Assembly (NCBI GenBank): GCA_001784435.1
Contig: MFQZ01000001.1
Coordinates: 16,032-80,031 of the forward strand
Reading direction: 5' to 3'
Length of the DNA stretch: 64,000 bases
DNA from: Candidatus Magasanikbacteria bacterium RIFOXYC2_FULL_42_28
GTDB taxonomy: Bacteria; Patescibacteriota; Patescibacteriia; Magasanikbacterales; GWA2-37-8
Position numbers and translations under genes: made by a program. Numbering within the stretch: the stretch's first letter is position 1; each line of letters starts with the position of its first letter. The notes under the pieces are model-generated. The model was not told the origin of the DNA. It saw only the letters and a list, made by a program, of their open reading frames with translations, and made no database searches. Below, piece by piece: positions 23,965-50,900 of the stretch.

Positions 23965-25209
23965 TTATTCTTTTCTAAGCGCCGTCACCGGATCCAAACC
24001 GGCGGCTTTCTTTGCTGGGTAAAGGCCAAAAAATAATCCAATGACCGCCGAAAACCCAACGGCCAAAATTATTGATTGAATGGGGATAACATACGCCCAG
24101 ACGAAGTTATAATAGACCGCAATCAAATAAATTACAAGGGCAAAAATCGCGCCTAAAATTATTCCCACGAGTCCCCCGCCCAAAGTTAAAAGCACTGCCT
24201 CACTTAAAAATTGTCGCAAAATATCTGAGTTAGTCGCCCCTAAGGCCTTCCTCAAACCAATTTCAAAAGTCCGTTCGGTAACCGACACATACATTATATT
24301 CATAATCCCCACCCCACCAACCAGAAGCGACACGCACACGAGCGCCACGAGCAACATCGTAATTCCGTTCACGACCGAGCCCAAAATATCCGCCGCCTCT
24401 TTCATCGTGTTAACGGCAAAATCATCTTTATTCGGATCAGTAATATCGTGATTGTCGCGAATAATTTCTTCCAAATCCGTAACGGTCGCTGCCATGGCCG
24501 AGCGGTCTTTTACTTTGGCAATTATAGAGCGAAAATAATCCACGCCTAAAATTTTCTTTTGCAAAGTTGTTACCGGCACAATGGCCATATTGTCCATATC
24601 CATCCCAAAAGACGCGCCCCGCTTAACAGTAACGCCCAACACCCGAAACGCTTTTCCCTTCATATATATAGTTTGACCCACCGCATCGCTGTCGCCAAAT
24701 AATTCCTCTTTTAACACTGGGCCCAAAACAGCGACTTGCGCGAGCGACTCCTCTTCTTCTTTCGTAAACATTCTCCCGTCCGACAAATCCAATTTTTCCA
24801 CTTCTTGTAAATTATATCCTTCGCCCATGAGTAGTGAAATTTTGGTTTGGTCTTCGTATTTAATCGCCGCCTGCCCCATTGCCCAACCATACGCCGCAAC
24901 AATATTGTGGTGATTACGCACATCTTCCAAATCATGATTTTTTAAAGTGGTAATATTAATACCGGTGCTCTGACCAAAAGCATTATCACTGGAAGTTTTT
25001 TTCGTGGCCGGCACTTTTACTTCAATGCTAATCGTGTCCGGCGAAAAAGTTTCCAATTGCGACATTACCATTCGATCCAATCCCCGCCCGGCGGCCATAA
25101 TGGCGATGACGACCGCGATGCCGATGCTTAAACCCAAAACAGTCAAGACGGTTCTGGTCTTTTGAGATTTAAGGGCAGTGATAGCTAATTTGATGGGAGT
25201 AAAATTCAT
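23965..25209 (-). CDS. ABC transporter permease, MacB/FtsX-like (paralog 1)
   Basis: 414 aa; N-terminal TM, large periplasmic domain, C-terminal FtsX 3-TM bundle; tandem paralog at 25670-26914. Confidence 0.75.
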   Translation of the reverse strand: MNFTPIKLAITALKSQKTRTVLTVLGLSIGIAVVIAIMAAGRGLDRMVMSQLETFSPDTISIEVKVPATKKTSSDNAFGQSTGINITTLKNHDLEDVRNHHNIVAAYGWAMGQAAIKYEDQTKISLLMGEGYNLQEVEKLDLSDGRMFTKEEEESLAQVAVLGPVLKEELFGDSDAVGQTIYMKGKAFRVLGVTVKRGASFGMDMDNMAIVPVTTLQKKILGVDYFRSIIAKVKDRSAMAATVTDLEEIIRDNHDITDPNKDDFAVNTMKEAADILGSVVNGITMLLVALVCVSLLVGGVGIMNIMYVSVTERTFEIGLRKALGATNSDILRQFLSEAVLLTLGGGLVGIILGAIFALVIYLIAVYYNFVWAYVIPIQSIILAVGFSAVIGLFFGLYPAKKAAGLDPVTALRKE

Positions 25210-25212
25210 GTT

Positions 25213-25672
25213 TAAACTCTAAATACTAAACCCTAAATTCTAAACAAACCCAAAATACAAATAATAAATGTTCAAATTTTCGAAATAATTGCGCCAAATA
25301 TTTTCATAAGCTGTGTTGCTTCATCAATTAAAATTTTTCTTTCCGCTTCGTGTATTGTTAACGCGTCCACTAATCTCAACCACAAAACTGATTCTTTTGC
25401 TTCTTTGCGACAAATCTTAATTCTCATTACAAAATCCTTTTTACTTAACGACTCACTTGCTTCAATATAATTCGCAGCAACCGAACCTGACGAACGAATT
25501 AATTGCTTGGCATATTCTATATTTGATATATTTCTTGGTAATTTTTTTACAAATAATTTTGTATTATAAGCAAATTTAAATATTCTATCGTGTAAATCAA
25601 ACACCGGTTTTGGATTTTGTATTTCAGACATTTGAACTTGTTTAGAATTTAGGGTTTAGAGTTTAGTATTTA
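25213..25672. mobile_element. Miniature element: four-helix-bundle protein gene flanked by 35-bp imperfect inverted repeats built from TTTAG-type units
   Basis: Left taaactctaaatactaaaccctaaattctaaacaa (25213-25247) vs reverse complement of right (25638-25672) taaatactaaactctaaaccctaaattctaaacaa; sits exactly between stop of one permease paralog and start of the other. Confidence 0.5.
25272..25631 (-). CDS. Four-helix-bundle protein (23S rRNA intervening-sequence protein family)
   Basis: 119 aa all-helical protein, A..YIEA..S.S...F....I...EA.ES.YWL motif characteristic of this family. Confidence 0.65.
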   Translation of the reverse strand: MSEIQNPKPVFDLHDRIFKFAYNTKLFVKKLPRNISNIEYAKQLIRSSGSVAANYIEASESLSKKDFVMRIKICRKEAKESVLWLRLVDALTIHEAERKILIDEATQLMKIFGAIISKI

Positions 25673-26914
25673 TTCGTACCTAAGCGCTTCAATAGGATTT
25701 AATTTTGCCGCCTTCCGCGCCGGCACAATCCCAAACAACATTCCGATCCCAACCGATACCACACAACCCAAGACAATCGACGGGATACTAATAATAAAAT
25801 CCCAGTCATAGCCAAGCGAACGCACCACCAGTGAAATTATATAAGAAATAAAAATACCAGAAATAATTCCGATCACGCCACCAATAAAAGTTATCATCAC
25901 GGTCTCAACTAAAAATTGTTCAATAATATTACGATTGGTCGCCCCAACGGCTTTGCGCAAACCAATTTCACGCGTGCGTTCTTGCACCGCCGCGAGCATG
26001 ATATTCATAATCCCAACGCCACCCACGACAAGCGCAATCGCCGCCACGGCTGCTAAAAATAATTTTAAAGCGTTGGTAATTTGCGTAATTGCTTCCAAAC
26101 CCTGCGCCATTGATCGCACCGAAAAATCATCCTCTTCCGGCCGGTCAATTTTGTGGCGTTCGCGTAAAAATATCCGCGCGTCTTCCATCGCCGCGTCAAC
26201 ATTGTCCGGATTATCCACTTTTAAACGCGCGAAGCTAATATAATCAATGCCCAATAATAATTTTTGCGCGGTATTAAGTGGCACAAAAATTTGGTCATCT
26301 TGATTTTGAAAACCAGACACACCGCGTGTTTTCATCACACCAATAACATTAAACGAGGATTTTTTTATTTTAATTTGCGCGCCCACCGGATCTTCTTCGC
26401 CAAATAATTCTTTGGCCACCGTACTGCCTAACACGGCCACGCGCGCCATACTACGCTCTTCTTCTTCGGTAAAAAATCTCCCATTTTCAACTTTGGCATT
26501 TTCCACTTCCACAATAGACGCGTTAACGCCGGTAAAACTGGTGTCGGTTTGATTGTCACCCCAAACAATCGTATCAGTGCCTTTGACATAGCCGGTGCCG
26601 GCAACAACGTGCGCCGAACCGCTCCGAATTAATTCGCGGATATCACTGTCTTTCAAAGTCGTAACCACAATTCCCATCGCTGACGCCGGTGGGCCTTTTT
26701 CATCAGACGCGCCCGGAAGCACACCAATTAAATCCGAACCCAAACTTTTTACTTGATTTAAAATCATCCCCTGCGCGCCCGCACCGGCTGACAAAACAAT
26801 TATCACCGACATCACACCAATTATCACCCCAAGCATAGTTAAAAATGACCGAATTTTATTCCGGCCCAATACTCGCCAGATGGCGTGGATGTTGTCGAGG
26901 AGGTGCATAATCAC
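25670..26914 (-). CDS. ABC transporter permease, MacB/FtsX-like (paralog 2)
   Basis: 414 aa; same architecture as 23965-25209. Confidence 0.75.
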   Translation of the reverse strand: MIMHLLDNIHAIWRVLGRNKIRSFLTMLGVIIGVMSVIIVLSAGAGAQGMILNQVKSLGSDLIGVLPGASDEKGPPASAMGIVVTTLKDSDIRELIRSGSAHVVAGTGYVKGTDTIVWGDNQTDTSFTGVNASIVEVENAKVENGRFFTEEEERSMARVAVLGSTVAKELFGEEDPVGAQIKIKKSSFNVIGVMKTRGVSGFQNQDDQIFVPLNTAQKLLLGIDYISFARLKVDNPDNVDAAMEDARIFLRERHKIDRPEEDDFSVRSMAQGLEAITQITNALKLFLAAVAAIALVVGGVGIMNIMLAAVQERTREIGLRKAVGATNRNIIEQFLVETVMITFIGGVIGIISGIFISYIISLVVRSLGYDWDFIISIPSIVLGCVVSVGIGMLFGIVPARKAAKLNPIEALRYE

Positions 26915-33096: not shown

Positions 33097-33741
33097 TTAT
33101 ATACCTTTATGTTCTAAAATTACTTTTATAGTGCGGGCGATAATTTTACAGTCATTCCAAACGATTTTTAGACCGCTACCGGTTCGACATAATTCGTAAT
33201 ATTCGCCGTCCATTTCTTTATCGCCAATTCCAGCTGGCCAATGCCCTTTATAACTTTGAAAAATTCCGGTCAAGCCGGCGGTTAAATATTTTTTTGTTAA
33301 ATTACCAGCGCGCAAACATTCTTCATATTCAACCGGTGGCTTGGGACGCGGACCAACCAAACTCATATCGCCGATCAATACATTAAAAAGTTGCGGTGCT
33401 TCGTCCAAGTAAACCCGTTTTAAAATTCTGCCAACCCGAGTAAAATTTTTATCATTTTCTACAAAAGCGGTATGGATGCTACCAAACTCCCGACGACATT
33501 GCTCATAAGCCGATAAGTGACAGGTGCGAATTTTGTAAAAATCAAATGGTTTGCCGGCGGAAATTCTTTTCTCGCAGTATAACCAAGGACCGCGCGCTGC
33601 GCCATCAAAGATTTTTTCAATGACTGACAAAATATAAGCCACCATTAGAAAAGGCGCGAGTAAGATCAGAAAAAAGATAGAAAAAATAACATCAAATAAC
33701 CGTTTAAAGAGCGGTATTTGAACGGGCGCGTCAATGTTCAT
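33097..33741 (-). CDS. Bacterial sugar transferase (polyprenyl-phosphate glycosyl-1-phosphate transferase, WbaP C-terminal type)
   Basis: N-terminal TM, DMSLVGPRP motif characteristic of PF02397. Confidence 0.75.
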   Translation of the reverse strand: MNIDAPVQIPLFKRLFDVIFSIFFLILLAPFLMVAYILSVIEKIFDGAARGPWLYCEKRISAGKPFDFYKIRTCHLSAYEQCRREFGSIHTAFVENDKNFTRVGRILKRVYLDEAPQLFNVLIGDMSLVGPRPKPPVEYEECLRAGNLTKKYLTAGLTGIFQSYKGHWPAGIGDKEMDGEYYELCRTGSGLKIVWNDCKIIARTIKVILEHKGI

Positions 33742-33835
33742 AACAGAGTTATTTTAACATAAAAACAATAAAAAGCCAATGGCCTGAGGCGCACTTGATT
33801 TTAGAGGTAAAATATGGTATTTTATAAAGCACAGA

Positions 33836-33912
33836 CGGGCTGTAGCGTAGTTTGGTAGCGCGCATGCATGGGGTGCATGAGGTCGCGGGTTCAAATCCCG
33901 CCAGCCCGACCA
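33836..33912 (+). tRNA. tRNA-Pro (anticodon GGG), CCA encoded
   Basis: Manual cloverleaf: acceptor CGGGCUG/CAGCCCG, anticodon stem CAUGC/GCAUG, loop AUGGGGU, T-loop GCGGGUUCAAAUCCCGC, 3' ACCA. Confidence 0.8.
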
Positions 33913-33937
33913 AAATTAAACTTCTGGGTAATTTTTT

Positions 33938-35104
33938 ATGCCTCGCGTCAAACTTTACGAACATTCAGCCAAAACCATAATATCAAAAGCGCTACCTCTC
34001 CCCTATCGCGGTATTAGAATTGATGAAAATACGGATTTAAAAAAATTAGTCGCGTCATTGCCTAAAAATAAAACTTACGTGGTGAAAGTTGACCAAGGAG
34101 TTAAAAAACGGATGAAAAATGGGTTGGTAGTTTTAAATATCAGTCCGGCCGAAATTCCAGCGGCGTTGAAAAAATTAAAATTAAAAAAATTTGATAATTT
34201 TTTGGTAGAAGAATTTTTACCACATAAGCCCAACGAGGAAAAATATTTTTCTTTGGAGCGCCAGCGCGATGGTATTGTCGCCAGTGTGTCAGATAAAGGC
34301 GGGATTGATATTGAAGACAATCCGGACTCAATCAAAACATTTATTTTAGAACCCAAAAATTATTCGGCTTTGGAAAAATTAACCGGATTATCGCCGGACA
34401 TGCTCCAAAAAATCCGCCAAACATTTGACGAACTTTGTTTTTCTTTTTTAGAAATAAATCCGCTCGTGGTAAAAAATGAAACTCCATATTTTTTGGATTT
34501 AGCTGCGACTGTGGATAGTGCCGGAGAATTTTTTGTAAGTGGCACTTGGGGCGAAAAAGACATCGTCGCCATGGCGCTTAAAACTACCGAAGAAAAAACC
34601 GTTAAAATTTTGAAAGATAACAGCCCGGCGGCTTTGTCGCTTGCAGTTATCAACCCCAATGGCTCAATCTTTTTGCTTTTATCCGGAGGCGGTGCCAGTT
34701 TAGTGGTGGCGGACGAGGTAGCCAATTTAGGCGCGGCAAATGAGCTCGCCAATTACGGCGAATACAGTGGCAACCCGAGCGAAGAAGAGACATATTTATA
34801 CACTCTGGAAATTATTTCTTTACTCAAAAAATCCCGCGCTAAACGAAAAATTTTAATTATCGGCGGTGGCGTGGCGAATTTTACTGATGTGCGTGCCACT
34901 TTTCGCGGTATTATTCGCGCGCTTGAAAAAAATAAAATTACTTTACAAAAAATGTCCACGAAAATTTTTGTGCGCCGGGGCGGACCGGGGCAGACCGAGG
35001 GTCTGGCCAGTATGCAAAAATTTTTAAATGACAATAATTTTGACGGCGGTGTTTACGGACCGGAATTGCCTTTACAAAAAATCGTGGAACTGGCCTTATG
35101 CTAA
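33938..35104 (+). CDS. aclB: ATP-citrate lyase subunit B-like (ATP-grasp; ACLY N-terminal homolog)
   Basis: Collinear matches to ACLY N-terminus: FLVEEFLPH, YLEINPLVV, FLDLAATVD, GGGASLVV, ANELANYGEYSGNPSE, ILIIGGGVANFTDVRATFRGIIRAL, IFVRRGGPGQTEGL. Confidence 0.8.
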   Translation: MPRVKLYEHSAKTIISKALPLPYRGIRIDENTDLKKLVASLPKNKTYVVKVDQGVKKRMKNGLVVLNISPAEIPAALKKLKLKKFDNFLVEEFLPHKPNEEKYFSLERQRDGIVASVSDKGGIDIEDNPDSIKTFILEPKNYSALEKLTGLSPDMLQKIRQTFDELCFSFLEINPLVVKNETPYFLDLAATVDSAGEFFVSGTWGEKDIVAMALKTTEEKTVKILKDNSPAALSLAVINPNGSIFLLLSGGGASLVVADEVANLGAANELANYGEYSGNPSEEETYLYTLEIISLLKKSRAKRKILIIGGGVANFTDVRATFRGIIRALEKNKITLQKMSTKIFVRRGGPGQTEGLASMQKFLNDNNFDGGVYGPELPLQKIVELALC

Positions 35105-36870
35105 ATATTCAACAACTGCGAAAATTAGAACCGCAAATAATCGCGCTTGGTAATCACCGGCCGATTTTGCAGTCAATGTTGGATTTTGATTTTTATTGTG
35201 GCCGAACCGAGCCGACACTTAAAGCAATTATCGGCACCGGTAAAAAATTTGAGAAATTTTTCTTTGGGAAACGTGAAATCTTAATTCCGGTATATCATGA
35301 TTTAAGTCATGATATAAAAATTAACGCCACTATCAACGGCTTAATCAACGTCAATTCCGGTAGACGCACGCTCGCCTCTATGCGCGCGGCCATATCAGCT
35401 TATCCCAATTTAAAAACAGCCGTACTATTTGCCGAAAATGTGCCGGAAAAACATTCTTTGGAAATGGACAAATTAGCCAAAACCAAAAACATCACCATCA
35501 CCGGTCCGGCCAGTGTGGGCATTTTAATCCCCAATCATTTAAAAATCGGCCCGATCGGGGGCGTAGACCATCGCCAGTTATTATCGGCGAAATTATTTGA
35601 CACGGGCGCGACCGCGGTGTTGTGTTCGTCCGGCGGTATGAGCAACGAAATTATCAACTTACTCGCCCACGCCAACATTCCCCTCTCGTTTGCCGTGGCG
35701 TTTGGTGGTGATCGCTTTCCGGTGCTTACTCCCAAAGAAGCATTTTTGGCCGCGGAAAATGACCCCAACACTAAACAAATTGTTTACTTCGGCGAATTAG
35801 GCGGATATGATGAATACGAACTAGCCGAATTATTAAAAAAGAAAATCATTACTAAGCCCGTTATCGCCTACATCGCCGGCAGTGTGTCCGCGGTCTTTAA
35901 AGAACCACCCCAATTTGGCCATGCCAAAGCGTTGGCGCAACGCGGGGCCGAAACCGCCGTGGCCAAAGCCGAAGCCCTTACTGATGCCGGCGCGCTCGTA
36001 GGAAAATCATTTGCTCAATTTTTAAATTTAATTACTAAAAATATTATGACTCAAAAATCTCCACCCCAAACCCAAATTGATTTATCAGACCGCCGCGCTT
36101 CGCTATTTACCTGTCGCATTTCCGGTGATAAAAACGGTAGTCCGACAATTTTAGGACAAGAATTGGTCGCGGCTGTAAAAACCATGAGTTATTCCGAAAT
36201 GGTCATCGCCTTACTACTTGGTAAAAAACCTAAATCAAAAGAATTGGCGCAATTTACCGATTTGGCACTAAAACTTTTAATTGACCACGGGCCGTATGTG
36301 TCTGGCGCGGTCAACACGATGATTACCGCGCGCGCGGGCAAGGATTTGGTATCGGCCTTGTGCGCCGGACTACTCACCATTGGCGACCGTTTTGGCGGAG
36401 CGATTAACGAAGCGGCCTTGAATTGGTTCACAGCGGTAAATCAAAAAATAGCCGCCGCAAATTTCGTAGAAAATTTTGCCAGCGCCAAAAAAATTATCGC
36501 CGGCATCGGCCATAAAAAATACAGTTCGCACCAGCCGGATGAACGGGTAAAATTAATTTTGGAATTTGCGAAAAAATTAAAATTCCACCCGCATTTGGAT
36601 TTTGCGTTAGGAGTAGCCAAAATAACTTTGGCCAAAAAAGCTAATTTGATTTTAAATGTGGACGGCGCTTTGGCAGCGGTGCTGTTGGATTTGTTACAAG
36701 AAAAAGAAAATTACCAAAAAGAAGAATTGTCCGAACTAATCGCTTCCGGATTTTTTAATTCACTATTCATCCTCGCCCGCAGTGTCGGGTTCGCGGCGCA
36801 TTTCTTGGAACAACGCCGGCTGGATGAAGGGCTGTTCCGCTTGCCGGAGGATAGTGTGAATAATGGTTAA
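35098..36870 (+). CDS. aclA: ATP-citrate lyase subunit A-like (CoA-binding, phosphohistidine, citrate-synthase-like lyase domain)
   Basis: Phosphohistidine loop QFGHAKA; C-terminal HGPYVSGAVNTMITARAGKDLVSALCAGLLTIGDRFGGAINEAA nearly identical in pattern to ACLY citryl-CoA lyase domain. Confidence 0.8.
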   Translation: MLNIQQLRKLEPQIIALGNHRPILQSMLDFDFYCGRTEPTLKAIIGTGKKFEKFFFGKREILIPVYHDLSHDIKINATINGLINVNSGRRTLASMRAAISAYPNLKTAVLFAENVPEKHSLEMDKLAKTKNITITGPASVGILIPNHLKIGPIGGVDHRQLLSAKLFDTGATAVLCSSGGMSNEIINLLAHANIPLSFAVAFGGDRFPVLTPKEAFLAAENDPNTKQIVYFGELGGYDEYELAELLKKKIITKPVIAYIAGSVSAVFKEPPQFGHAKALAQRGAETAVAKAEALTDAGALVGKSFAQFLNLITKNIMTQKSPPQTQIDLSDRRASLFTCRISGDKNGSPTILGQELVAAVKTMSYSEMVIALLLGKKPKSKELAQFTDLALKLLIDHGPYVSGAVNTMITARAGKDLVSALCAGLLTIGDRFGGAINEAALNWFTAVNQKIAAANFVENFASAKKIIAGIGHKKYSSHQPDERVKLILEFAKKLKFHPHLDFALGVAKITLAKKANLILNVDGALAAVLLDLLQEKENYQKEELSELIASGFFNSLFILARSVGFAAHFLEQRRLDEGLFRLPEDSVNNG

Positions 36871-36893
36871 AAAACCAACAATGCAACTTAAAC

Positions 36894-36925
36894 AAAAACA
36901 CCTCTGCCAACAGAGGTGTTTTTGT
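36894..36925 (+). terminator. Rho-independent terminator after aclA
   Basis: acacctctg-ccaa-cagaggtgt stem-loop followed by TTTTGT. Confidence 0.6.
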
Positions 36926-36933
36926 GGTATAAT
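36925..36933 (+). promoter_or_regulatory. Extended -10 (TGgTATAAT) ~30 nt upstream of corA
   Basis: tgg tataat at 36925-36933; corA ATG at 36963. Confidence 0.4.
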
Positions 36934-36962
36934 ATAATTGTTTACAAATCTAATCGCTAAAT

Positions 36963-37973
36963 ATGCCAACCGCCAAAAACAACGCGCCAAAAAATAACAT
37001 CGACCTGTTTGACTACGACGCTAAGAATTTCATAGAAAAACGCGTCAAGTCCATTGATGATTGTATCCCCTACAAAAATACTCCGAGCGTTACCTGGATT
37101 AACATTGACCGCACGCCACCTTTGGCATTTTTAGAAAAATTGCAACTGGGATTTGATTTACATCCGGTTATCGTAGAAGACATTACCGGTCCCAACCAAC
37201 GCCCCAAAGTGGAAATTTTAGATGACTACATCTATGTGGTTTTTCGTATGCTTACCATTGACGAAGAACACAAAAAAGTTATGAGCGAACAGGTAAGTTT
37301 GGTATTGTCGCATAAATTTCTAATCACTTTTCAACAAAACGTCGTGGGCGATACTTTTGAACCGGTGCGCGCGTTAATCCGTAAACCCACTACGCGTATT
37401 CGACATTTGGACACCGACTATCTTGCTTACGAACTAATTAATTCAGTCGTGGAAAATTATTTTAAAATTTTAGAATATTTCTCGGAAAAAATTGAGAAAC
37501 TGGAGCAAGAAATTATTACCAATCCGACGAGTCGCAATTTAAACCATATCCACTCTTTAAAACGAGGGCTACTGTCTTTTCGTAAATCCATTTGGCCGCT
37601 ACGCGAAGTTATCGGCATTTTGGAACGAGGCGAATCAACTTTAATTAAAAAATCCACCCGTATTTATTTGCGCGATTCTTACGAACGATTAATTCAAGTG
37701 ATCGATTCGGTGGAAACTTACCGCGATATTTTATCGGGGCTATTAGATGTATATTTATCCAGTGTGTCTAACCGCACCAATTCGGTCATGCGCGTGCTGA
37801 CGGTCATTACCACTATTTTCATGCCCTTGTCGTTTTTGGCCGGCTTTTATGGCATGAATTTCACCAATTTACCGGGGATGCATACCTCCTACGGCCCAGC
37901 TGTAGTCACCGCCATAATGCTCGTCATAATGGTGATAATGTTATCCTACTTCCGCAAAAAAGAATGGCTATAA
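36963..37973 (+). CDS. corA: Magnesium/cobalt transporter CorA
   Basis: C-terminal two TM helices with YGMNF (GMN) motif. Confidence 0.85.
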   Translation: MPTAKNNAPKNNIDLFDYDAKNFIEKRVKSIDDCIPYKNTPSVTWINIDRTPPLAFLEKLQLGFDLHPVIVEDITGPNQRPKVEILDDYIYVVFRMLTIDEEHKKVMSEQVSLVLSHKFLITFQQNVVGDTFEPVRALIRKPTTRIRHLDTDYLAYELINSVVENYFKILEYFSEKIEKLEQEIITNPTSRNLNHIHSLKRGLLSFRKSIWPLREVIGILERGESTLIKKSTRIYLRDSYERLIQVIDSVETYRDILSGLLDVYLSSVSNRTNSVMRVLTVITTIFMPLSFLAGFYGMNFTNLPGMHTSYGPAVVTAIMLVIMVIMLSYFRKKEWL

Positions 37974-38713
37974 ATATGTGGCGTAAATCCATATTAATTA
38001 TTCTGATTGTCGTCATTGCCATTGGTGTTTATCTCAATCGCTCTTACGCGCATTTTTTTAATTATATCACTGATCACTTTCAAACTAACCCCACTATTAA
38101 TTACAACTACGAAATTGGAATTGGACCACCGATAAAATATGTGGCTCTGGGTGACAGCTTGACTGCCGGCACCGGCACCAATGAACCGACCGACAGTTTT
38201 CCTTATCAACTATCACAAAAAATAGCAGCTGACGGACACAGAGTTGAATTAATGAATTTGGGGATACCGGGCGGAAAGGCCGACAACATAATCAGTGGGC
38301 AAATTGAAAAAACCATCGCGTTTAAGCCAAATTTAATTACTATCCTAATTGGGGTTAATGATCTGCAGGACAAAATAAAAAAGACGATGTTTGCGCAGAA
38401 TTTAGACAAAATTATCGTAGAGCTAAAAGCCAAAACAACCGCCCGCATCATCGTCGCGAGTATACCTCATTTAGGCGCCTACCCGGCCTTACTTTGGCCA
38501 CATTACCAATATTTTAATTACCAAACACAAAAATTTAACACGGTAATTCAAAATATTGCCACTGCCAATTCCGTGGAATTTATTGATTTATATTCTTACA
38601 ATAAAAATTTAGAAAAAACCGGCGACAATTTTTATTCACCGGATTATTTTCATCCTAATAAAAACGGCTACCGCGCCTGGGCCGAATTTTTCTATGCAAA
38701 TTACCGTAAATAA
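37964..38713 (+). CDS. SGNH/GDSL-family hydrolase (putative O-acetyl esterase/transferase partner)
   Basis: Block I VALGDSLTAGTG with catalytic Ser; N-terminal TM anchor; overlaps downstream acyltransferase-3 gene. Confidence 0.7.
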   Translation: MAINMWRKSILIILIVVIAIGVYLNRSYAHFFNYITDHFQTNPTINYNYEIGIGPPIKYVALGDSLTAGTGTNEPTDSFPYQLSQKIAADGHRVELMNLGIPGGKADNIISGQIEKTIAFKPNLITILIGVNDLQDKIKKTMFAQNLDKIIVELKAKTTARIIVASIPHLGAYPALLWPHYQYFNYQTQKFNTVIQNIATANSVEFIDLYSYNKNLEKTGDNFYSPDYFHPNKNGYRAWAEFFYANYRK

Positions 38714-39815
38714 CCCCGAACAACAAACGTTAATTTTTGGAATTATTTTTTTAGTGGCGCTAATAGCATTTTTACGATTTCGAAAAAATAATGGCGATTT
38801 ATTCCCCACCACAACGACGAACGAATTAAAAGGAGTGGCGATTATCGCGATCGTCTTGGCGCATATCGGCTATTTTTTATCGACCAATACGAAATTTCTA
38901 TTCCCCTATTCAATTTTCGCCGGCGCCGGGGTTGATTTATTTTTATTTTTGTCCGGCTTTGGCTTGGCGGCTTCGGCACTAAAAAAAGAAATCTCCACAA
39001 TTGAATTTTATAAAAAACGACTGAAAAAAATATTAGTACCGATGTGGGTGACAATGGTGATATTATTAATCGCTGATTGGCTGATTTTGGGGATCAAATA
39101 TCCGACTAACGCGATTGTCAAAAATTTTCTCGGTTTTTTCCAAACAGCCGATTTATTTAACGACATCAATTCCCCGCTTTGGTTTATCACTTTAATTTTC
39201 GCTTATTATTTATTATTTCCATTAGTGTTCAACAGGCGCGCGCCCTGGATTTCGGCATTAATTTTATTTTTTTTAGGATATTATTTTGTCCAAGCGCCCC
39301 ACGAAAAATTGCAAGATATTTTGCATCTGTGGAAATGGCATATTTTGGCTTTCCCGGTGGGCGTGGCGTTTGCCGATTTGCTTAATACCAAACTACTAAA
39401 CAACACGGTTGCTAAATCAAAAAAATATTTTTCGCGCTTTGCTAAAACTACGTTTATCGCCCGGTTACTTTTGGCGAGCGCACTTTTAATAACTGGCTGG
39501 TATGTGGCGGTTGATTTGCGTATCGGCTCGGGCTGGTGGTATGAAGAAAAAATTTGTGTTTTAGTGGCGTTACTGGTACTATTGGCTTTTATGATATTAC
39601 CGTTGCGTTTTACAATTTTAGAAATTTTGGGATCATGCTCCTACGAAATTTACTTAATACACTGGCCACTTTTGTATCGTTATGATTTATTTTATAAATA
39701 CCTGCCGGCCGGATTAGCGACCATATTATATTTTGCTCTTTTTATCGGCTTGGGATTATTACTGCAAAAAGGAACGGAATTAATCGCAAAAAAAACCCGA
39801 CTGGGGAGGGCTTGA
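38694..39815 (+). CDS. Acyltransferase family 3 membrane protein (OatA/OafA-like)
   Basis: 373 aa, ~10 TM helices, conserved IIAIVLAHIGYF-type N-terminal helix with His. Confidence 0.65.
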   Translation: MQITVNNPEQQTLIFGIIFLVALIAFLRFRKNNGDLFPTTTTNELKGVAIIAIVLAHIGYFLSTNTKFLFPYSIFAGAGVDLFLFLSGFGLAASALKKEISTIEFYKKRLKKILVPMWVTMVILLIADWLILGIKYPTNAIVKNFLGFFQTADLFNDINSPLWFITLIFAYYLLFPLVFNRRAPWISALILFFLGYYFVQAPHEKLQDILHLWKWHILAFPVGVAFADLLNTKLLNNTVAKSKKYFSRFAKTTFIARLLLASALLITGWYVAVDLRIGSGWWYEEKICVLVALLVLLAFMILPLRFTILEILGSCSYEIYLIHWPLLYRYDLFYKYLPAGLATILYFALFIGLGLLLQKGTELIAKKTRLGRA

Positions 39816-39950
39816 TTTTATCTACTAGTCGTGCTAAAATTGGAAACGTTTAAATCGTCCGCCAAAGGCGCTGCGCCTGCCTCTGGCACGGGACACCCGC
39901 CTGTGGCGGGGGCTTGATTACGCAAAAAAATAACATACAAAATAAACAAA

Positions 39951-40023
39951 CGGGCTATAGCGCAGTTGGTAGCGCGCGTGGTTCGGGACCACGAGGCCGT
40001 GGGTTCAAATCCCACTAGCCCGA
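39951..40023 (+). tRNA. tRNA-Pro (anticodon CGG)
   Basis: Manual cloverleaf: acceptor CGGGCUA/UAGCCCG, D-arm GCGC-AGUUGGUA-GCGC, anticodon stem CGUGG/CCACG loop UUCGGGA, T-arm GUGGGUUCAAAUCCCAC. Confidence 0.8.
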
Positions 40024-40028
40024 CACAT

Positions 40029-40370
40029 TAAAAAAGAAAGCAAATGCTTTCTTTTTTAATGTGTCGCAGTCACTGAACGACGTGCGAACCTTTTTTGAAA
40101 AAAATATTATTGGCCAATAATCGAGTTTCCGCGCCCCGTCCGGCGGACGGGGCAACAAACAAGTTTGTTTTTTTCTGAAAGAAAAAGCGGAAACCGTGAA
40201 CCCGTTTGCCCCGACCAAGTCGTGGCAAAATTGTTCGCGACAAGCCCCCCCCCTGTCCGTTTGTGTTGAAAATTACTTTTTGCCTACCACCGCCAGAGGC
40301 GGGCAGGCGTATCGGGCGGGCGTGTCTGAGTGGCTGGTGGGTGGATATTAGTATTTAAATACTAATACGC
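40029..40370. repeat. Left copy of ~340-bp inverted repeat (IR-L) bounding accessory island; begins with hairpin aaaaaagaaagcaaatgctttctttttt
   Basis: ~88% identical to reverse complement of 54624-54968; contains conserved hairpins (ccccgtcc-ggcg-ggacgggg; ccgcc-aga-ggcgg) and ends inward with palindrome tattagtatttaaatactaata. Confidence 0.85.
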
Positions 40371-41374: not shown

Positions 41375-43789
41375 TTAATTATTTAATAACCAGTTAAGAT
41401 CTTCTAATAGCACGGCATAGGCCGGAGCGGTAATGGCTTTGTCGCGTTTGTTCGTTAATTCTCTTAAAAAGTTTAGCCCTAAAATTTTGTCAATCCTTTG
41501 GGTCAACCTTTCAATTCTTTCCGCTCGTCTAGGGGCGGGAAATTTTGGTGGTTTGGCTTTGATGGTTTCAATTATCATTTCCAAACGAATGGCGTTTTTT
41601 AATTTGTTTATTAAACTATTTTTGGTGGACAAATTTTTTATCCAGCCCAAAATAAACATTTTTTCAATGTCGGCAATAGTACTGGACGGGGTGGCGATTA
41701 GTTGATAAATGATCGTAGCCGTGGCGGTATTGCCGGCGAAATCAGTGGCGGTAGCGAAAAAAATATGGTTGCCTAATTTTTGGGTGAACAAATCAATTGG
41801 CTCGCCCACGACTACTATTTTACCATCTAACGACCAAACCTGCGACTGGATGCCAGAGTCGGCGTCGGTGCTGGAAACGGAAACTGCCAAACTGTCCACG
41901 CGAGTATAATTCTGTGCCAAAGGCGAATTAATAGTTACTATTGGCGAAATAGTATCTCCAGCTGGTTTTACTTCTAAAACAGACGGCTCGGCATTGTCTA
42001 CTATAAACTCCAAATCGGCAATTTCGTCTGACAAAATTGTGCTTTGGTAATTACTACTTACGGATTGGCTATCGCTGACATAACTAGCGACAATCGTGTA
42101 TTCTCCGCCATCACCGGTACCTTGGGCTTGAATTTTATATTCGCCATCCAGTGGGTTTGGAACGGTAATGTATTCGTTGTCTGTAGCAAAACCAGAATAA
42201 AAAGCACCTTCAATTTCGTTGAATTCTTCGCCGGTATTAAAGTCCTTACCTACGCGCTTACCGTCCGGGGCGATGACGACAATGTCGGCTGGGGAGAGGA
42301 TTTTGATGAGGAGAATTTTGACATTGGGAAAATAAGAATGATTAACTTCAACCGGATCGTTAATATCTGATAGCTGACCTATGATTATTTTTTCCGCCTC
42401 GGTTGGTAAATTTCTATGCCCAGAATTATAAACAACCGTGCGTAAATCATTATTGTAGGCACTAACATATCTACTACTGCGCAGAGGAACCGTATCATCT
42501 CCATCGCCTAATTCCAACCCCAAATCAGCGGTTGTACCATCATATCCATCAGGGAATCCATCTTCCCACACTGGCTTAATAGGTGAATCAACTACCCGAA
42601 TCGTGTTTATGGTGTTACTTGTGTCTAAATTACCAACGATATTAAAAATTGAAACGCCGGAATTAAATAATCGATCAATATTAGCGTTTAACTCTTCTAA
42701 AAACGGATTAACCGGATAATTATTGGGATATGCACGCATTTGGCCGGTGCTTTTGTCTTTTAAATAATCATAAATCGGTAACAATTCTTGGGCTGATGCT
42801 ATTGGTTCACGATGAACATAATCAAAAATATCCATATAGCCGGATTTTTTAGCTTCTCTTGAAAAAAATGATTCTTTTAGGTTGTCTTCTATATTAACTC
42901 CAAACTCCTCCGCCTCCCAAGTTAAATACGATGCTGGTGCCCCCAAATGCGGCGTCCCTAAAAATATCAATTGGTCGACATCTTGAATATAATCATCAGA
43001 TTGGATATATTGCCGCGCGACTAATCCACCCATAGAGTGTCCGACCAAATCCACTTTATCGCACTGGCAATTTTCTTTTACCTCATCAATTTTTTCTTTT
43101 AATTGAAAAGCCGTGTCCACATTGGACTGGCGCCACTCATATGGGAAAGTAAATAAATCATAGCCGAGGCGATAACCATTAGCCACGAAAGTATCCACCA
43201 AATTATCATAGGTATGAAAAATAGGATCAATCACCCACTCACCATTTTTTTGTTCGCTTCCCATAACGCCGGGAATAATAATAACCGGATCGCTTTTTAC
43301 ATTTACTTCGTATTCGCCACTCGCGGGCAAGCGCGCGCTATTGCCAAAACTGTCGGTGGTTTCAAAATGAAACGAATAATGTCCGCGTACGAGAGTGGGA
43401 GATGATGTAAAAATATATTCTATGCCACCATAATAACCACAATTTAAATAATTTTCTTCGCCATTGGGACCAAAACCTAACCAACACTGATCCGCACTGG
43501 CGTTTCTGATCATTGGATAAGAGGCACCATCAATAACGACATTGATATCCAGCGGCGCGTCGTTGTCTTGGTCGGTATAAATCATTTTAAAATCCGGCAC
43601 GGAAGAAATATACCAAGAATATGGCTGCTCATCGATATAAAGATTGGCTTGGTCGTAGGTATGCGACAGGGTTGGTGGTTGATTGTCGGGGATTATAATG
43701 GCCGCCTGTATGACCAATGGCGCGAATAAAAACGCAACAAAAAAAGCCACGGAAATCATGACCTTTTTTGACCAAAAATTATGGTTCAT
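41375..43789 (-). CDS. Secreted alpha/beta-hydrolase lipase (GxSxG) with C-terminal Ig-like/Big-type domains
   Basis: Signal peptide MISVAFFVAFLFAPLVIQA; PGVMGS and VGHSMGGLVARQY lipase-class-2/PGAP1-like motifs; C-terminal beta-rich repeats (SVSSTDADSG...). Confidence 0.6.
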   Translation of the reverse strand: MNHNFWSKKVMISVAFFVAFLFAPLVIQAAIIIPDNQPPTLSHTYDQANLYIDEQPYSWYISSVPDFKMIYTDQDNDAPLDINVVIDGASYPMIRNASADQCWLGFGPNGEENYLNCGYYGGIEYIFTSSPTLVRGHYSFHFETTDSFGNSARLPASGEYEVNVKSDPVIIIPGVMGSEQKNGEWVIDPIFHTYDNLVDTFVANGYRLGYDLFTFPYEWRQSNVDTAFQLKEKIDEVKENCQCDKVDLVGHSMGGLVARQYIQSDDYIQDVDQLIFLGTPHLGAPASYLTWEAEEFGVNIEDNLKESFFSREAKKSGYMDIFDYVHREPIASAQELLPIYDYLKDKSTGQMRAYPNNYPVNPFLEELNANIDRLFNSGVSIFNIVGNLDTSNTINTIRVVDSPIKPVWEDGFPDGYDGTTADLGLELGDGDDTVPLRSSRYVSAYNNDLRTVVYNSGHRNLPTEAEKIIIGQLSDINDPVEVNHSYFPNVKILLIKILSPADIVVIAPDGKRVGKDFNTGEEFNEIEGAFYSGFATDNEYITVPNPLDGEYKIQAQGTGDGGEYTIVASYVSDSQSVSSNYQSTILSDEIADLEFIVDNAEPSVLEVKPAGDTISPIVTINSPLAQNYTRVDSLAVSVSSTDADSGIQSQVWSLDGKIVVVGEPIDLFTQKLGNHIFFATATDFAGNTATATIIYQLIATPSSTIADIEKMFILGWIKNLSTKNSLINKLKNAIRLEMIIETIKAKPPKFPAPRRAERIERLTQRIDKILGLNFLRELTNKRDKAITAPAYAVLLEDLNWLLNN

Positions 43790-46088: not shown

Positions 46089-46634
46089 TTATTTAGTGGG
46101 TTGTGCACGCTTGTTGGCATGATGCCTATGATAAGCAGTTTGAAAAAATTTTGGAATGTGTGGCAAATAATTGTCAAAAAAAGATTTCGGTAAAAATTGA
46201 ACCGATCTAACTACTTTTCTGCACCTATCGCTTTTGCAAAGACAACGCATATACCATAACTTCTCACTTTCAATGGTAGAATAATCAAGCGTAATTTCCT
46301 CACCCTGTTTGATGTGCTTTAGAGCCACCACAGTAACTGTGCCCTTAATAGCAGAATTGGGGTGGCAAGAATGGTTTAAATATTTAAATGGCACTGCCGG
46401 ATCTATCCACAAATTCTTTTTTATACCTATCCAGTCTTCACCATACATTGCCGTCTTCATGTCTTTAACCACCCAATGAACAAGTTCGCCTTTAATTATT
46501 GCCACTGTCTCACCCTTTTTAATATCTTTAGAGGCAAAAAGGCCAAACCCGTCAATACGGCTCTTAGATATATAAATTTTTTTATGTTTAAAATTTGTTC
46601 TATCCATACACGATTTATAAAATATGACATCCAA
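46089..46634 (-). CDS. SET-domain protein-lysine methyltransferase with post-SET Cys cluster
   Basis: NHSCHPN, EEITLDY, post-SET CLCKSDRC motifs. Confidence 0.7.
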   Translation of the reverse strand: MDVIFYKSCMDRTNFKHKKIYISKSRIDGFGLFASKDIKKGETVAIIKGELVHWVVKDMKTAMYGEDWIGIKKNLWIDPAVPFKYLNHSCHPNSAIKGTVTVVALKHIKQGEEITLDYSTIESEKLWYMRCLCKSDRCRKVVRSVQFLPKSFFDNYLPHIPKFFQTAYHRHHANKRAQPTK

Positions 46635-47986: not shown

Positions 47987-50900
47987 TTATTCAATTACTT
48001 TTTTTAATTCCCAAAAACGATTGCTGCCTTTTACTAACAACTCATTAATTAAATTAACAACACCGTCTTTAGTTTGTGAATTTTTATACAATGTTTTTAA
48101 TGCCGTTGTGATACTATCGCCATAAAGAGAATAAGCAAAATAACCAGGCCCAGCGACCACTTGTTGCATCAAATAAAGCTCCAAAATTATTAAAGTGTCT
48201 TCCGGCGCGGCATTGGCAAAATCCGGCAATCTATTGATGACGCCATGTTCCCATTCAATGTCGCCGTTACTTTTTTCCAACGATTGTTTAAAGTGCAAAA
48301 CCAACCATTTTAAATCTGTAAACAATCTTTGTTTTTCTCCAACCCAAAAACCAAAATAAGCAAAAATTTCATTTTCGCCGTCAATGGGGTTTGCCAAAAT
48401 CCAATCCCACAGGTTACTTAATTTCCCCCTAATAACATCCGCGTTAATTTTATTAACCAACATAAATTCAGCCGGATCATCACGGGATATGAAATGTCGC
48501 CCAATATACGATACGAACTCGCCGTGGCGTTTTTGTCCGGCTGTGTCCCAAAACAATTTAAATATTGGTGAATTAAAATCAAAATTACCATAATGAACAT
48601 AAGCCAAAGCCAAATGAATAGCCAGCCCTTCATCTAATTCTTTGGAATAATGACGCTTGGTATATTCGTTACTTGGCATTTCAATCAAGCGTTTATAAAT
48701 ATTACTCAAATCATCAAATAATTCTTCATACAAATCAGCAGTTAAATAACCCTCAACCGCGGCCAAAAATAAATCCTTTTTTGCTAGCGCAGACGAAAAT
48801 ATTTTGGGAATCATCTTTTTCATCCATTCTTTATCACGATAATAAAAAGTCGGAAGATAACGACCAAATAAAAACATTACCGCGCGAGTATTTTCTATTT
48901 CTAAAATTTGCTCATAAATCTTTTTAACATCTTCGCTAATCTTGGCTATATCTTCTTTGGTAAAATTATTTTTCCCGTCCAAATACACAAATAATGCCAA
49001 CGATTCAAACGCGCGGCCACGGACAGAATTAATAGCGTGAGTGAACGGATCACTGCCGTTTTCAACATTCTCACTTTCTGGATCAGGGTCAGAATGGCGG
49101 AGTAAATATGAAATTATAGCAAGGATCCGTTTCCTATTCTTTTTGAAATCAATCAATTGACCGCTATGTTTACCTGATAAGATAATTTTTAATAACTCGG
49201 AAATTTCACCATGCACGCCCGCCCAATCGACCAACCATGTGCTACCAAGCTCTGCCCTGCCTTTACGCACGCTTAAAAATTGTGTTAGCGCAGAAGAACT
49301 TTTGATAACATCAAACAAATCTAATAGTTTTTCCAAATCGAGGCCGCCACTATACTCGTCTTGACGAATAACTGCTTCAATGCCGTGTAAAAATGAATAG
49401 GTATAATGCTGATCTAAAATATCTCTCTGAAAAAATAAATTAGCATTATCAAGATATGCCCCCGGTCTTTTGGCAATATCCTGCACGAGCATATTGCCCA
49501 TACCGTCGGCACTTAGTGGATTTAAAAAATTCCGTTCTCCATCTTTTTTATATAAACTCTCCGGCGACCATTCCGATAATAATTTATCCACCATCGTTGA
49601 TATTTCCATTTTATTCAACTCCGGCAAATCTATCGGAGCACGCGGTCTGACCATTCCGCCAGTAACAGGTCCGTATCCTGCAATAGGTTCAAATTTTTGA
49701 TCTAATTCTTTGTCAAAAATTTGTTTCGCCATATTTTTTTTCACATCTGTCAAATTATCAAATATACTAGACAGGATTTCCCAGCCATCACTTTTATACA
49801 TTGTTTCATCTTTTTTATCTGTCCGCTCTTTACCGAAATAATTAAAAACCTGCTTAACGTATTCTTCTTTGTCTGTTTTGTCTAAATCAAAAAAGCATTT
49901 ATTTAAGGCATGACAATATTCTGGACTATACAACTCATAATATTTTTCTTCATCAGCGAATATATCAAAAAAAGCTTTTTTCAATTCATCTTTAAACACT
50001 TCCGGACACAAGCTCCATATAAAAAGACGGAAACGATAAAACGATTGAGTATTTGGCAAATTTTTTATATACAAACCATGCAATCTTTGGGCATCGTCGC
50101 ATTTTCCATTGAATAAGGACTTCGCTAATTTGGTAATTGTCGCTGCTAAATCGTGTACATTATCACGCAATGAAAGATGGGCTTTGATATTTAAATCAAG
50201 CACAAAAAAATCAACATCAAACAGATAATAATTTTCTTTGGCATCAAAATATTTACTATCTGATCTGCCGGAAGAAACTGCAATATCTTTTAAAATATTC
50301 AAAAGTAATTTAAATGTCCGCTCTACATAATCGTCGTCTATCAAACTAAGATAATTAAATACTTTTGTATGCTCTAAATCGTTAATATAAAAAGGATTAT
50401 CAGAAAAATTATTGGTTTTATCTCGTTCGGCTTGGCTACGAATTGTTAGCACCGCCTCGGCCAATTCTAACAATCCGCTGTATTCTTTTGCTACAGACAA
50501 TTCTTTGAGTATTTCTTCATATTCAAATCCCCACCGACTAAACGGTGCCAACAGTTTCACCCATTCATTATTCTTTATCATTCCTGTTAATTTTACAATT
50601 TGCGCAGCTGGTAATTTGGAACAAATATGCAAAAAAATATCAACTACTTCCGGATTAAAATTTTTGACCGACATGCTGACAGTCAAAATTATATCCGCGA
50701 CTTTTTCTGGATTATTTTCTGCCATTCGCTCTAAATATCCTAACTCTGGTAAGGAATATGAATATCTAGTTGGATCTGCAGATTTTTGTTTTATAGCGTT
50801 TAAAAAACCGCCATTCCACAACCAGTCAAGCCAACGTTCGTCGGCTTTTGTAAAAAAATATCTATATGCGTCCGAATTAAAAGATAAAATTAAAAAAACT

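Follow-up and report, generated by a model that had tools for sequence, protein, structure and literature searches.

Human ATP-citrate lyase (ACLY; PDB 6HXH, 6POE, 6UUZ) is a single chain of 1101 aa that contains a regulatory linker, and in which an ATP-grasp module is followed by citrate-binding, CoA-binding/ligase plus phospho-histidine, and citrate-synthase-homology modules. Roles have been ascribed in this enzyme to H760 (loop), E599, D1026, H900, R1065, and R976 (PMC10115795). Two-subunit ATP-citrate lyases (ACLs) are represented by ACLY-A/B of the archaeon Methanosaeta (Methanothrix) concilii (PDB 6HXI, 6ZNW), an organism not known for the reductive TCA (rTCA) cycle, and by AclBA of Chlorobium limicola (PDB 6HXJ), the classical rTCA ACL, which works within a complete rTCA cycle. 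Homologous chemistry is performed as two half-reactions in Hydrogenobacter thermophilus, by citryl-CoA synthetase (CCS) and a separate citryl-CoA lyase (CCL; PDB 6HXQ, 6HXP). ACL genes have also been recorded in metagenome-assembled genomes (MAGs) of Patescibacteria and DPANN. Enrichment of aclAB has been reported in Saccharimonadia (PMC12577380), and for Patescibacteria and DPANN it has been proposed that citrate is taken up from the community and converted to acetyl-CoA and oxaloacetate (PMC13014828); both the occurrence of aclAB in Patescibacteria and the citrate-scavenging proposal were, therefore, already known (PMC13014828, PMC12577380). Finally, the eukaryotic ACLA/B has been placed with DPANN, and ACLY with Thermoplasmatota-E3 (PMC11976288).

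The locus described here lies in a 64-kb stretch of DNA (the window) from a Magasanikbacteria-like bacterium of the Patescibacteria (CPR), and a small-genome bacterium was also the host envisaged in a preliminary description made from the sequence. Genes for ribosomal proteins, RpoA, AlaRS, MurG, sigma-70, DnaG, and glutamine synthetase are present in the window, which is core chromosome. The two adjacent plus-strand genes of that description, aclB and aclA, were both recovered at exactly the positions it gave, with a 7-nt overlap (ATGCTAA) between the aclB stop and the aclA start. The features of the locus are as follows:

33836-33912, plus strand: tRNA-Pro (GGG), found by ARAGORN and by the Rfam tRNA model (65.5 bits)
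33938-35104, plus strand: aclB, predicted ACL small (beta) subunit, 388 aa; ATP-grasp residues 6-204, citrate-binding residues 216-387
35098-36870, plus strand: aclA, predicted ACL large (alpha) subunit, 590 aa; CoA-binding/CoA-ligase region with phospho-His loop, and fused citryl-CoA-lyase module
35920-35922, plus strand: His275 codon of AclA, equivalent by residue mapping to human His760, the catalytic phospho-histidine (loop PQFGHAKA)
36166-36840, plus strand: predicted citryl-CoA-lyase/citrate-synthase-homology module of AclA, residues 357-581 (Pfam Citrate_synt)
36963-37973, plus strand: corA (CorA TIGR00383, 289 bits)
37964-38713, plus strand: SGNH/GDSL hydrolase gene (Lipase_GDSL_2)
38694-39815, plus strand: Acyl_transf_3 (AT3) membrane acyltransferase gene (PF01757)
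39951-40024, plus strand: tRNA-Pro (CGG), found by ARAGORN and Rfam

The pair had been described as lying between two tRNA-Pro genes and next to an island. Both tRNAs are indeed present, the GGG gene ending 25 nt upstream of aclB, but the corA, SGNH/GDSL, and AT3 genes form a three-gene block (36963-39815) that separates aclA from the second tRNA. The low-GC island, at ~44-54 kb of the window, starts ~7 kb further downstream and does not adjoin aclBA. A promoter/terminator scan of 33600-40200 returned no excess over shuffled sequence (15 vs 15.1; 11 vs 9.8) and is therefore uninformative on transcription units.

The module order of human ACLY is preserved at this locus, divided over two polypeptides. 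Pfam analysis of AclB identified the ACL ATP-grasp domain (PF24948; 108 bits, cut-off 83, 6e-31) and Citrate_bind (PF16114; 191 bits, cut-off 26.8, 1.6e-56), while that of AclA identified Ligase_CoA (PF00549; residues 176-299, 4e-13) and a C-terminal Citrate_synt domain (PF00285; residues 357-581, 2.6e-23). Searches of the PDB with phmmer gave human ACLY as the top match of both subunits, at 39-40% identity. For AclB it scored 212 bits (E 1e-61), followed by the M. concilii (192 bits) and C. limicola (146 bits) enzymes and the CCS large subunit (51 bits). For AclA, the alignment with human ACLY is full-length (500-1091) and scores 389 bits (E 5e-115), the lower matches being M. concilii (348), C. 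limicola (230), the succinyl-CoA synthetase (SCS) alpha subunit (88), CCS (74), and CCL (73 bits). The second-best structural relative is thus the M. concilii ACL, which is archaeal and has a larger large subunit (631 vs 590 aa). C. limicola AclBA shares the two-subunit architecture but is much more distant, and a Chlorobiaceae representative is ~32% identical to the protein described here. The gene order aclB-aclA is also that of C. limicola.

Residue mapping from human ACLY revealed that 17 of 18 catalytic and ligand positions are identical; the sole change, R976 to K473 in AclA, is conservative and keeps the positive charge. AclB retains the nucleotide/Mg2+ positions K50, R58, E101, N174, and D187 (human K58, R66, E118, N203, and D216) as well as the citrate positions G278, N314, T316, and R347 (human G309, N346, T348, and R379), the human residues being citrate and MgATP ligands in the ACLY structures. 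In AclA, E113 corresponds to human E599, the Glu partner of the phospho-His, and H275 to human H760, and both are invariant across 22 CPR homologues. The lyase module contributes H397, H472, R483, D522, R561, and R581 (human H900, H975, R986, D1026, R1065, and R1085). The ACLY motifs quoted in the preliminary description are all present, with a single small difference (FLEINPLVV in the window, YLEINPLVV in human).

That description had allowed for a paralog of SCS or citrate synthase lacking the lyase residues, and a related reading is that aclBA are an SCS or CCS/CCL paralog without true ACL activity. Such a reading could draw on the NCBIfam results, which consist solely of sub-threshold SCS, citryl-CoA lyase, and citrate synthase matches, and on the records of some relatives, which are named 'succinyl-CoA synthetase alpha subunit' or 'citrate/2-methylcitrate synthase'. 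These names, however, arise because NCBIfam has no ACL model, and its matches all fall far under the curated cut-offs, whereas the ACL-specific Pfam domains Citrate_bind and Citrate_synth_N both exceed theirs. Furthermore, ACL structures outscore those of SCS, CCS, or CCL 3-5-fold, the H. thermophilus CCS and CCL reaching only 51-74 bits. The lyase, a separate protein in H. thermophilus, is here joined to the CoA-ligase module within the 590-aa alpha subunit, which is the ACL arrangement, and none of the catalytic residues of the lyase domain is missing. As far as sequence goes, the paralog reading is already refuted, and we regard it as scarcely credible. Domains, PDB scores, and residues agree with the original identification of a genuine aclB-aclA ACL with intact synthetase and citryl-CoA-lyase modules, and aclBA almost certainly encode a complete, intact heteromeric ATP-citrate lyase (EC 2.3.3.8, AclB/AclA type).

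A genome-collection scan with the alignment as query found AclBA relatives in at least 389 species-level genomes, the best 80 of which are Magasanik-, Levy-, Woese-, Saccharibacteria or other Patescibacteria-like MAGs. The view of ACL as confined to a few lineages with the rTCA cycle is thus not supported. The nearest named homologues are from Candidatus Magasanikbacteria (65-79%), and further ones come from Woesebacteria, Levybacteria, Dojkabacteria, and Saccharibacteria ('ATP citrate synthase', MBP6005557.1). Many of the relatives' records are labelled 'hypothetical protein'. aclB adjoins aclA in 82 of 84 loci.

In a neighbour-joining (NJ) tree with 100 bootstraps, labelled from cluster look-ups, the CPR sequences group in a clade of their own (bootstrap 86), separate from the one that holds human ACLY; the deep nodes are weak (13-52). 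The CPR clade is deep and diverse (44-98% pairwise identity), and the ACLs already recorded in Patescibacteria and DPANN MAGs, including a Candidatus Magasanikbacteria relative at 66%, fall in the same clade. Chlorobiaceae and Nitrospinota together lie on a separate, long branch (bootstrap 100). One representative (P0134; 619/631 aa) groups weakly with the eukaryotes and not with the CPR clade; we guess that it is Methanothrix-like. The term 'eukaryote-like' used initially does not, therefore, denote a special relationship: ACLY outscores the Chlorobium ACL, yet in the tree the CPR sequences are neither nested in nor sister to the eukaryotes, within the limits of an NJ tree with weak deep nodes. 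On these sequence comparisons, aclBA appear to belong to a large, CPR-specific ACL clade.

The greater similarity to human ACLY than to Chlorobium ACL, the two flanking tRNA-Pro genes, and a restriction-modification island at ~10 kb from aclBA could be taken to mean that the pair was recently acquired from a eukaryote or archaeon on a tRNA-flanked island. Its composition argues against this: the GC contents of the two genes (0.41 and 0.45) are typical of the window (0.41 ± 0.04), and their codon-usage distances rank 26 and 27 among 49 window genes, so that the check on recent transfer suggested earlier gave a negative answer. The anticodons of the flanking tRNAs differ (GGG, CGG), contrary to a duplicated attachment site, and the depth and diversity of the CPR clade also speak against import. 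Moreover, gene order is shared with the nearest relative (locus L068; AclA 79% identical over the best segment), in which PilT, tRNA-Pro(GGG), aclBA, and tRNA-Pro(CGG) follow one another with the GGG tRNA directly upstream of aclB. An apparent split of aclA in L068 reflects a stretch of N in the scaffold sequence, and the pseudogene that it suggested was rejected. The tRNA-Pro(CGG) gene lies beside aclA in L068 and in two further Magasanikbacteria relatives, L001 and L002. Recent transfer is thus highly improbable; aclBA are inherited within the lineage, and the pair in this window is an unexceptional member of a family with earlier records in Patescibacteria.

The same comparison bears on the genes downstream of aclA. 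The AT3 and SGNH pair resembles acetyl-CoA-dependent O-acetyltransferase systems. L068 has no CorA, SGNH, or AT3 gene between aclA and tRNA-Pro(CGG), and the block is likewise missing from L001 and L002; its linkage to aclBA is therefore lineage-specific, and a functional tie was rejected.

Gene neighbourhoods were compared across 80 CPR loci (the best of at least 389), in 20-kb neighbourhoods where a neighbour is a gene within three genes of aclBA. At least one cell-wall amino-sugar gene or acetyl-CoA enzyme neighbours aclBA in 48 of the 80. Among cell-wall genes these are MurB (30 loci), Ddl (4), GlmS (3), and GlmM (3), and among acetyl-CoA enzymes GNAT/NUDIX-GNAT acetyltransferases (16) and Tdh+Kbl (8-9). 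AT3 genes recur near aclBA in three other loci, and acetate-CoA ligase (Acs; NF003313, 745 bits) and an archaeal-type PEP carboxylase (TIGR02751, 484 bits) occur in three and four CPR aclBA loci, respectively. A GlmU candidate upstream of aclB in L070 and L076 was rejected, as its nucleotidyltransferase is ManC-like. The arrangements vary between lineages with no more than 50-60% AclA identity. The argument from gene context is correlative and reflects in part shared ancestry, because many of the MurB-linked loci are Levybacteria-like, and at the window's own locus neither MurB, GlmS, nor GNAT neighbours aclBA. A link between aclBA and cell-wall amino-sugar genes was not found in the literature searched.

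Textbooks treat ACL as the marker of the rTCA cycle, and metagenome surveys use it in that capacity; aclBA might on that basis be assigned to the CO2-fixing cycle of Chlorobi, Campylobacterota, Aquificota, and Nitrospirota. Neither the 64-kb window nor the 80 related 20-kb neighbourhoods, however, contain 2-oxoglutarate:ferredoxin oxidoreductase, fumarate reductase, PFOR, aconitase, IDH, or the remaining rTCA enzymes, and no other TCA enzyme of any kind was found in the window. The CPR clade stands apart from the Chlorobiaceae/Nitrospinota rTCA branch, and CPR genomes are small (~1-1.6 Mb). They are generally described as being without a TCA cycle. Patescibacteria have also been listed among ACL-only genomes (PMC13014828). 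On the content of the window and the 80 neighbourhoods, participation in an rTCA cycle is very unlikely, and the neighbourhoods point instead to a stand-alone acetyl-CoA/oxaloacetate node.

Judging from the conserved residues, AclB would bind MgATP and citrate, and His275 of AclA would be phosphorylated before handing its phosphate to citrate. [quoted passage not shown] Gene context and literature suggest that AclBA would act alone, outside the rTCA cycle, converting citrate from a host or community to oxaloacetate and to cytoplasmic acetyl-CoA for acetylations, notably in cell-wall amino-sugar and envelope glycan synthesis. The conversion of scavenged citrate that was put forward in the preliminary description is accordingly plausible, and the same role has been proposed elsewhere (PMC13014828); a citrate transporter was found neither in the window nor among the recurrent neighbours of aclBA. 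On gene context and literature, we lean slightly towards this reaction direction and towards a role in acetyl-CoA supply.

The opposite direction, in which AclBA would mainly be an ATP-yielding citrate synthase (acetyl-CoA + oxaloacetate + ADP + Pi to citrate + ATP + CoA), could conserve energy from acetyl-CoA or supply citrate, e.g., towards 2-oxoglutarate/glutamate, in a genome without a normal citrate synthase. The ACL reaction lies close to equilibrium, and an ACL that forms citrate has reportedly been described in Desulfobacter. On human ACLY, the retro-aldol step can run in both directions (PMC10115795), and glutamine synthetase is encoded in the window. Furthermore, both substrates are made by enzymes encoded among the neighbours, and Acs and Tdh+Kbl (acetyl-CoA) or PEP carboxylase (oxaloacetate) fit the citrate-forming direction equally well. 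AMP-forming Acs would, however, cost more ATP than reverse ACL returns, aconitase and IDH were seen in neither the window nor the 80 neighbourhoods, the most frequent neighbours (MurB, GNATs, GlmS, GlmM) use acetyl-CoA or act downstream of acetylation, and the published interpretation favors cleavage (PMC13014828). Hence, we consider a predominantly citrate-forming enzyme rather unlikely.

Taken as a whole, the best explanation is that aclBA encode a functional heteromeric ACL of the CPR clade, inherited within the lineage, with a stand-alone role in converting citrate to acetyl-CoA and oxaloacetate, and we judge this probable. A more far-reaching possibility, which the GlmS/GlmM/GNAT/MurB and AT3 context brings to mind and which we offer only tentatively, is that the CPR ACL is dedicated, in the manner of eukaryotes, to making cytoplasmic acetyl-CoA from imported citrate, feeding N- and O-acetylation of cell-wall amino sugars, and that ACL may be a widespread, conserved core enzyme of a metabolism that otherwise has no TCA cycle.

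In metagenome surveys, ACL is read almost by default as a sign of autotrophic carbon fixation through the rTCA cycle. Given a large, conserved clade of CPR ACLs that stand alone, many of these assignments in groundwater and soil data would not be indicative of CO2 fixation. In CPR biology, ACL marks a likely entry of host- or community-derived citrate into the acetyl-CoA and oxaloacetate pools, and its recurrent linkage to peptidoglycan and amino-sugar genes suggests a concrete and testable use for ACL-derived acetyl-CoA. If citrate does feed acetylation in this manner, the reliance of these ultra-small cells on a host or community would have citrate as a key currency.

Both plus-strand ORFs of the preliminary description are present at exactly 33938-36870, in the following arrangement:

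The aclBA pair and flanking tRNA genes
33836-33912, tRNA-Pro, anticodon GGG
33938-35104, plus strand, aclB, ORF of 388 aa
35098-36870, plus strand, aclA, ORF of 590 aa
39951-40024, tRNA-Pro, anticodon CGG

The aclA start codon overlaps the aclB stop codon within 7 shared nucleotides (ATGCTAA), which suggests that the two genes are translationally coupled; a short overlap is the commonest junction among related loci, being 4 nt in 17 of them. The pair does lie between two tRNA-Pro genes, although three genes, corA, one for an SGNH/GDSL protein and one for an Acyl_transf_3 (AT3) protein, intervene between aclA and the CGG copy.

Pfam domains, PDB ranking and retained catalytic and ligand residues support the ATP-citrate lyase (ACL) identity of aclBA, a predicted assignment that we consider secure. 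AclB carries the ACL-specific ATP-grasp domain PF24948 and the citrate-binding domain PF16114 (1.6e-56), and AclA a CoA-ligase domain and a C-terminal citrate-synthase domain. Human ACLY is the best match of both proteins among all PDB sequences (212 bits for AclB, 389 for AclA), with Methanosaeta concilii ACLY-A/B in second place (192 and 348) and Chlorobium limicola AclBA in third (146 and 230); citryl-CoA synthetase (CCS), citryl-CoA lyase (CCL) and succinyl-CoA synthetase (SCS) reach no more than 51-88 bits. Residues were mapped by rebuilding human ACLY segments from the PDB-match alignments, followed by global alignment. Human K58, R66, E118, N203 and D216, the nucleotide/Mg2+ ligands of ACLY structures, and G309, N346, T348 and R379, the citrate ligands, are all kept, as are the AclA equivalents of Glu599, phospho-His760 and the lyase-module residues H900, H975, R986, D1026, R1065 and R1085, the sole substitution being R976 to Lys. 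The roles of H760, E599, D1026, H900, R1065 and R976 are documented, and the exact share of the citrate-synthase-homology module in catalysis versus allostery is still debated (PMC10115795). At the sequence level, the conserved residues and PDB ranking rule out the refuting case of the preliminary description, an SCS or citrate synthase (CS) paralog devoid of the lyase residues. NCBIfam lacks an ACL model and returns only sub-threshold SCS, CCL and CS matches, hence the misleading names of many database relatives.

A motif and tblastn scan in which each GTDB species was represented by a single genome identified at least 389 loci encoding ACL relatives, the best 80 of which are all named as, or resemble, Patescibacteria (CPR). 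These 80 include 41 labelled 'uncultured Gammaproteobacteria' and two labelled 'bacterium'; since their AclA proteins are 53-96% identical to named CPR (Levy-/Patescibacteria) proteins, and they share CPR synteny and a GC content of 30-47%, the 43 labels look wrong, the former like a placeholder error. The apparently mislabelled 'Gammaproteobacteria' loci are L004, L006-L008, L010, L011, L058 (OZ246394.1, a 1.61 Mb chromosome) and some 35 others.

Among 1.84 billion cluster representatives, searched exhaustively, 141 clusters matched at E<=1e-30. In a neighbour-joining tree of full-length representatives (590 columns, 100 bootstraps, tips labelled by cluster look-ups), the window AclA falls in a CPR clade that includes Dojkabacteria (bootstrap 86), and the nearby branches hold a divergent form from Saccharibacteria and one DPANN archaeon (Norongarragalinales). 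Chlorobiaceae and a fused Nitrospinota protein form a separate long branch (bootstrap 100), and human ACLY is placed in another clade of mostly fused proteins, the deep nodes being weak (13-52). The proposed 'eukaryote-like' character, taken as a special relationship, is therefore not supported: because the CPR and human ACLY clades lie apart, the fact that the pair resembles human ACLY more closely than Chlorobium ACL reflects a branch-length effect without specific eukaryotic affinity. In a published analysis, eukaryotic ACLA/B adjoins DPANN and ACLY adjoins Thermoplasmatota-E3 (PMC11976288). The Nitrospinota protein (P0197; MAG protein MBI3583056.1) is a single ACL-like chain of 1023 aa grouping with Chlorobiaceae AclA, which suggests a bacterial fusion independent of that of eukaryotic ACLY.

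The window aclBA belongs, as an ordinary member, to a large clade of CPR ACLs; that this clade exists, and what it probably does, has already been published. Saccharimonadia MAGs are enriched in aclAB (PMC12577380); ACL-bearing genomes are mainly Micrarchaeota, Nanoarchaeota, Patescibacteria and others, for which uptake of community-released citrate and its conversion to acetyl-CoA and oxaloacetate have been proposed (PMC13014828); and a 2022 preprint placed CPR/DPANN citrate-cleavage enzymes, misannotated in GenBank as SCS or CS, with CCS/CCL. In view of these reports, the suggested citrate scavenging is not new (PMC13014828), and the supposed restriction of ACL to lineages using the reductive TCA cycle is outdated, CPR relatives being widespread. 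A reductive TCA role for aclBA is very unlikely; the 64-kb window encodes no TCA or acetyl-CoA enzyme other than ACL.

The window is core chromosome, encoding ribosomal proteins S13, S11, S4, L17, L13 and S9, RpoA, AlaRS, MnmA, MurG, sigma-70, DnaG, FemAB-like enzymes, FtsW and glutamine synthetase. Two contigs, one of 207 kb from ENA and one from a JGI metagenome, carry an identical AclA in the same gene order. Among named homologues, those of Candidatus Magasanikbacteria are nearest (65-79%), and Levy-, Woese-, Saccharibacteria and 'Patescibacteria group' MAGs come next. Recent transfer finds no support in GC content (0.41 for aclB and 0.45 for aclA, the window averaging 0.41 +/- 0.04), codon-usage distance (26th and 27th among 49 window genes) or synteny. 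Indeed, the nearest relative, L068 (Magasanikbacteria RIFOXYD2_FULL_41_14), shares the order MacB, ABC ATPase, HlyD, CCA-adding enzyme, PilT, tRNA-Pro(GGG), aclB, aclA, tRNA-Pro(CGG), and lacks corA, SGNH and AT3 genes between aclA and tRNA-Pro(CGG). Hence, the lineage has inherited aclBA vertically, and the corA-SGNH-AT3 block was inserted later. PilT, aclBA and tRNA-Pro(CGG) are also retained in two further related loci, L001 and L002. The L068 aclA is broken by an N run (~10480-10600) that shifts the frame; its splitting by ORF callers reflects an assembly gap, not a pseudogene.

The island with which the pair had been associated is a restriction-modification (R-M) island in a low-GC region farther downstream, unrelated to ACL. 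It is listed here with other features:

Other features of the window
23965-26914, minus strand, tandem pair of MacB/FtsX-type permease paralogs, each of 414 aa, with a 119-aa ORF between them that belongs to PF05635 ('23S rRNA intervening sequence protein' family), adjoined by an ABC ATPase and an HlyD-like protein
41375-43789, minus strand, 804-aa protein with PGAP1/LCAT/lipase-like matches and an OmpL47-type domain
46089-46634, minus strand, SET-domain protein (172-181 aa) adjoining a histidine kinase/response regulator pair
47987-51532, minus strand, 1181-aa ORF, lowest-GC part of the window (0.34)
51596-54422, minus strand, R-M pair: HaeII-family endonuclease (PF09554, 3e-124) and a 591-aa partner with UPF0758 N-terminal and RadC/JAB domains fused to a C-5 cytosine DNA methyltransferase
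54993-56003, minus strand, short glutamine synthetase (336 aa), highest GC of the window (0.50), adjoining dTDP-sugar epimerase/FdtA-type genes and a family-2 glycosyltransferase run

The RadC-methylase fusion is unusual. Neither the 1181-aa ORF nor the small ORFs flanking it has a Pfam match, and they probably share a mobile or defence island with the R-M genes.

ORFs were called in 80 related loci and clustered, and the neighbours that recur, many of them same-strand and within 200 nt, were annotated; 82 of 84 loci have aclA adjoining aclB.

Recurrent neighbours of aclBA in CPR loci
MurB: 30 loci within three genes; TIGR00179, above cut-off
GlmS: 3 loci within three genes (5-member cluster); 763 bits
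GlmM: 3 loci; 448 bits, at cut-off
Ddl: 4 loci; Pfam Dala_Dala_lig N and C domains
LysA: 1 locus within three genes (3-member cluster); above cut-off
GNAT and NUDIX-GNAT acetyltransferases: 16 loci; Pfam GNAT families
Threonine dehydrogenase and glycine C-acetyltransferase (Tdh and Kbl): 8-9 loci; just under equivalog cut-offs
Acetate-CoA ligase (Acs): 3 loci; above cut-off
Acyl_transf_3: 3 loci; Pfam PF01757
Archaeal-type PEP carboxylase: 4 loci; above cut-off

MurB, GlmS, GlmM, Ddl, GNAT or Tdh/Kbl, the only families in this tally, lie within three genes of aclA in 48 of the 80 loci. Levybacteria-like loci read [GreA-Tdh-Kbl, EF-G or Ddl]-aclBA-MurB, Saccharimonadia-like loci aclBA-GlmM-GNAT, GlmM-GNAT-aclBA or aclBA-GlmS, and Woesebacteria-like genomes have GlmS a few genes upstream; AclA identity among the linked sets falls as low as 50-54%. 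This recurrent linkage to peptidoglycan/amino-sugar genes and other acetyl-CoA enzymes is modestly new. Four loci (L004, L033, L054 and L062) carry, at about 4-9 kb in each, a conserved same-strand run of PEP carboxylase (TIGR02751), a dCTP deaminase-like gene, a 564-aa protein without a family match, and aclB-aclA; in this one sub-lineage of CPR, ACL is linked to an enzyme that produces oxaloacetate.

The gene context is compatible with both directions of the enzyme. We lean towards citrate cleavage; the reverse, ATP-yielding citrate synthesis, seems unlikely, although Acs and Tdh with Kbl as makers of acetyl-CoA, and PEP carboxylase as a maker of oxaloacetate, would supply it equally well. 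Given the recurrent amino-sugar, peptidoglycan and acetyl-CoA neighbours, ACL would fit within an acetyl-CoA/oxaloacetate node serving the acetylation of envelope amino sugars, a theme with which the downstream AT3 and SGNH pair of the window, though lineage-specific, agrees.
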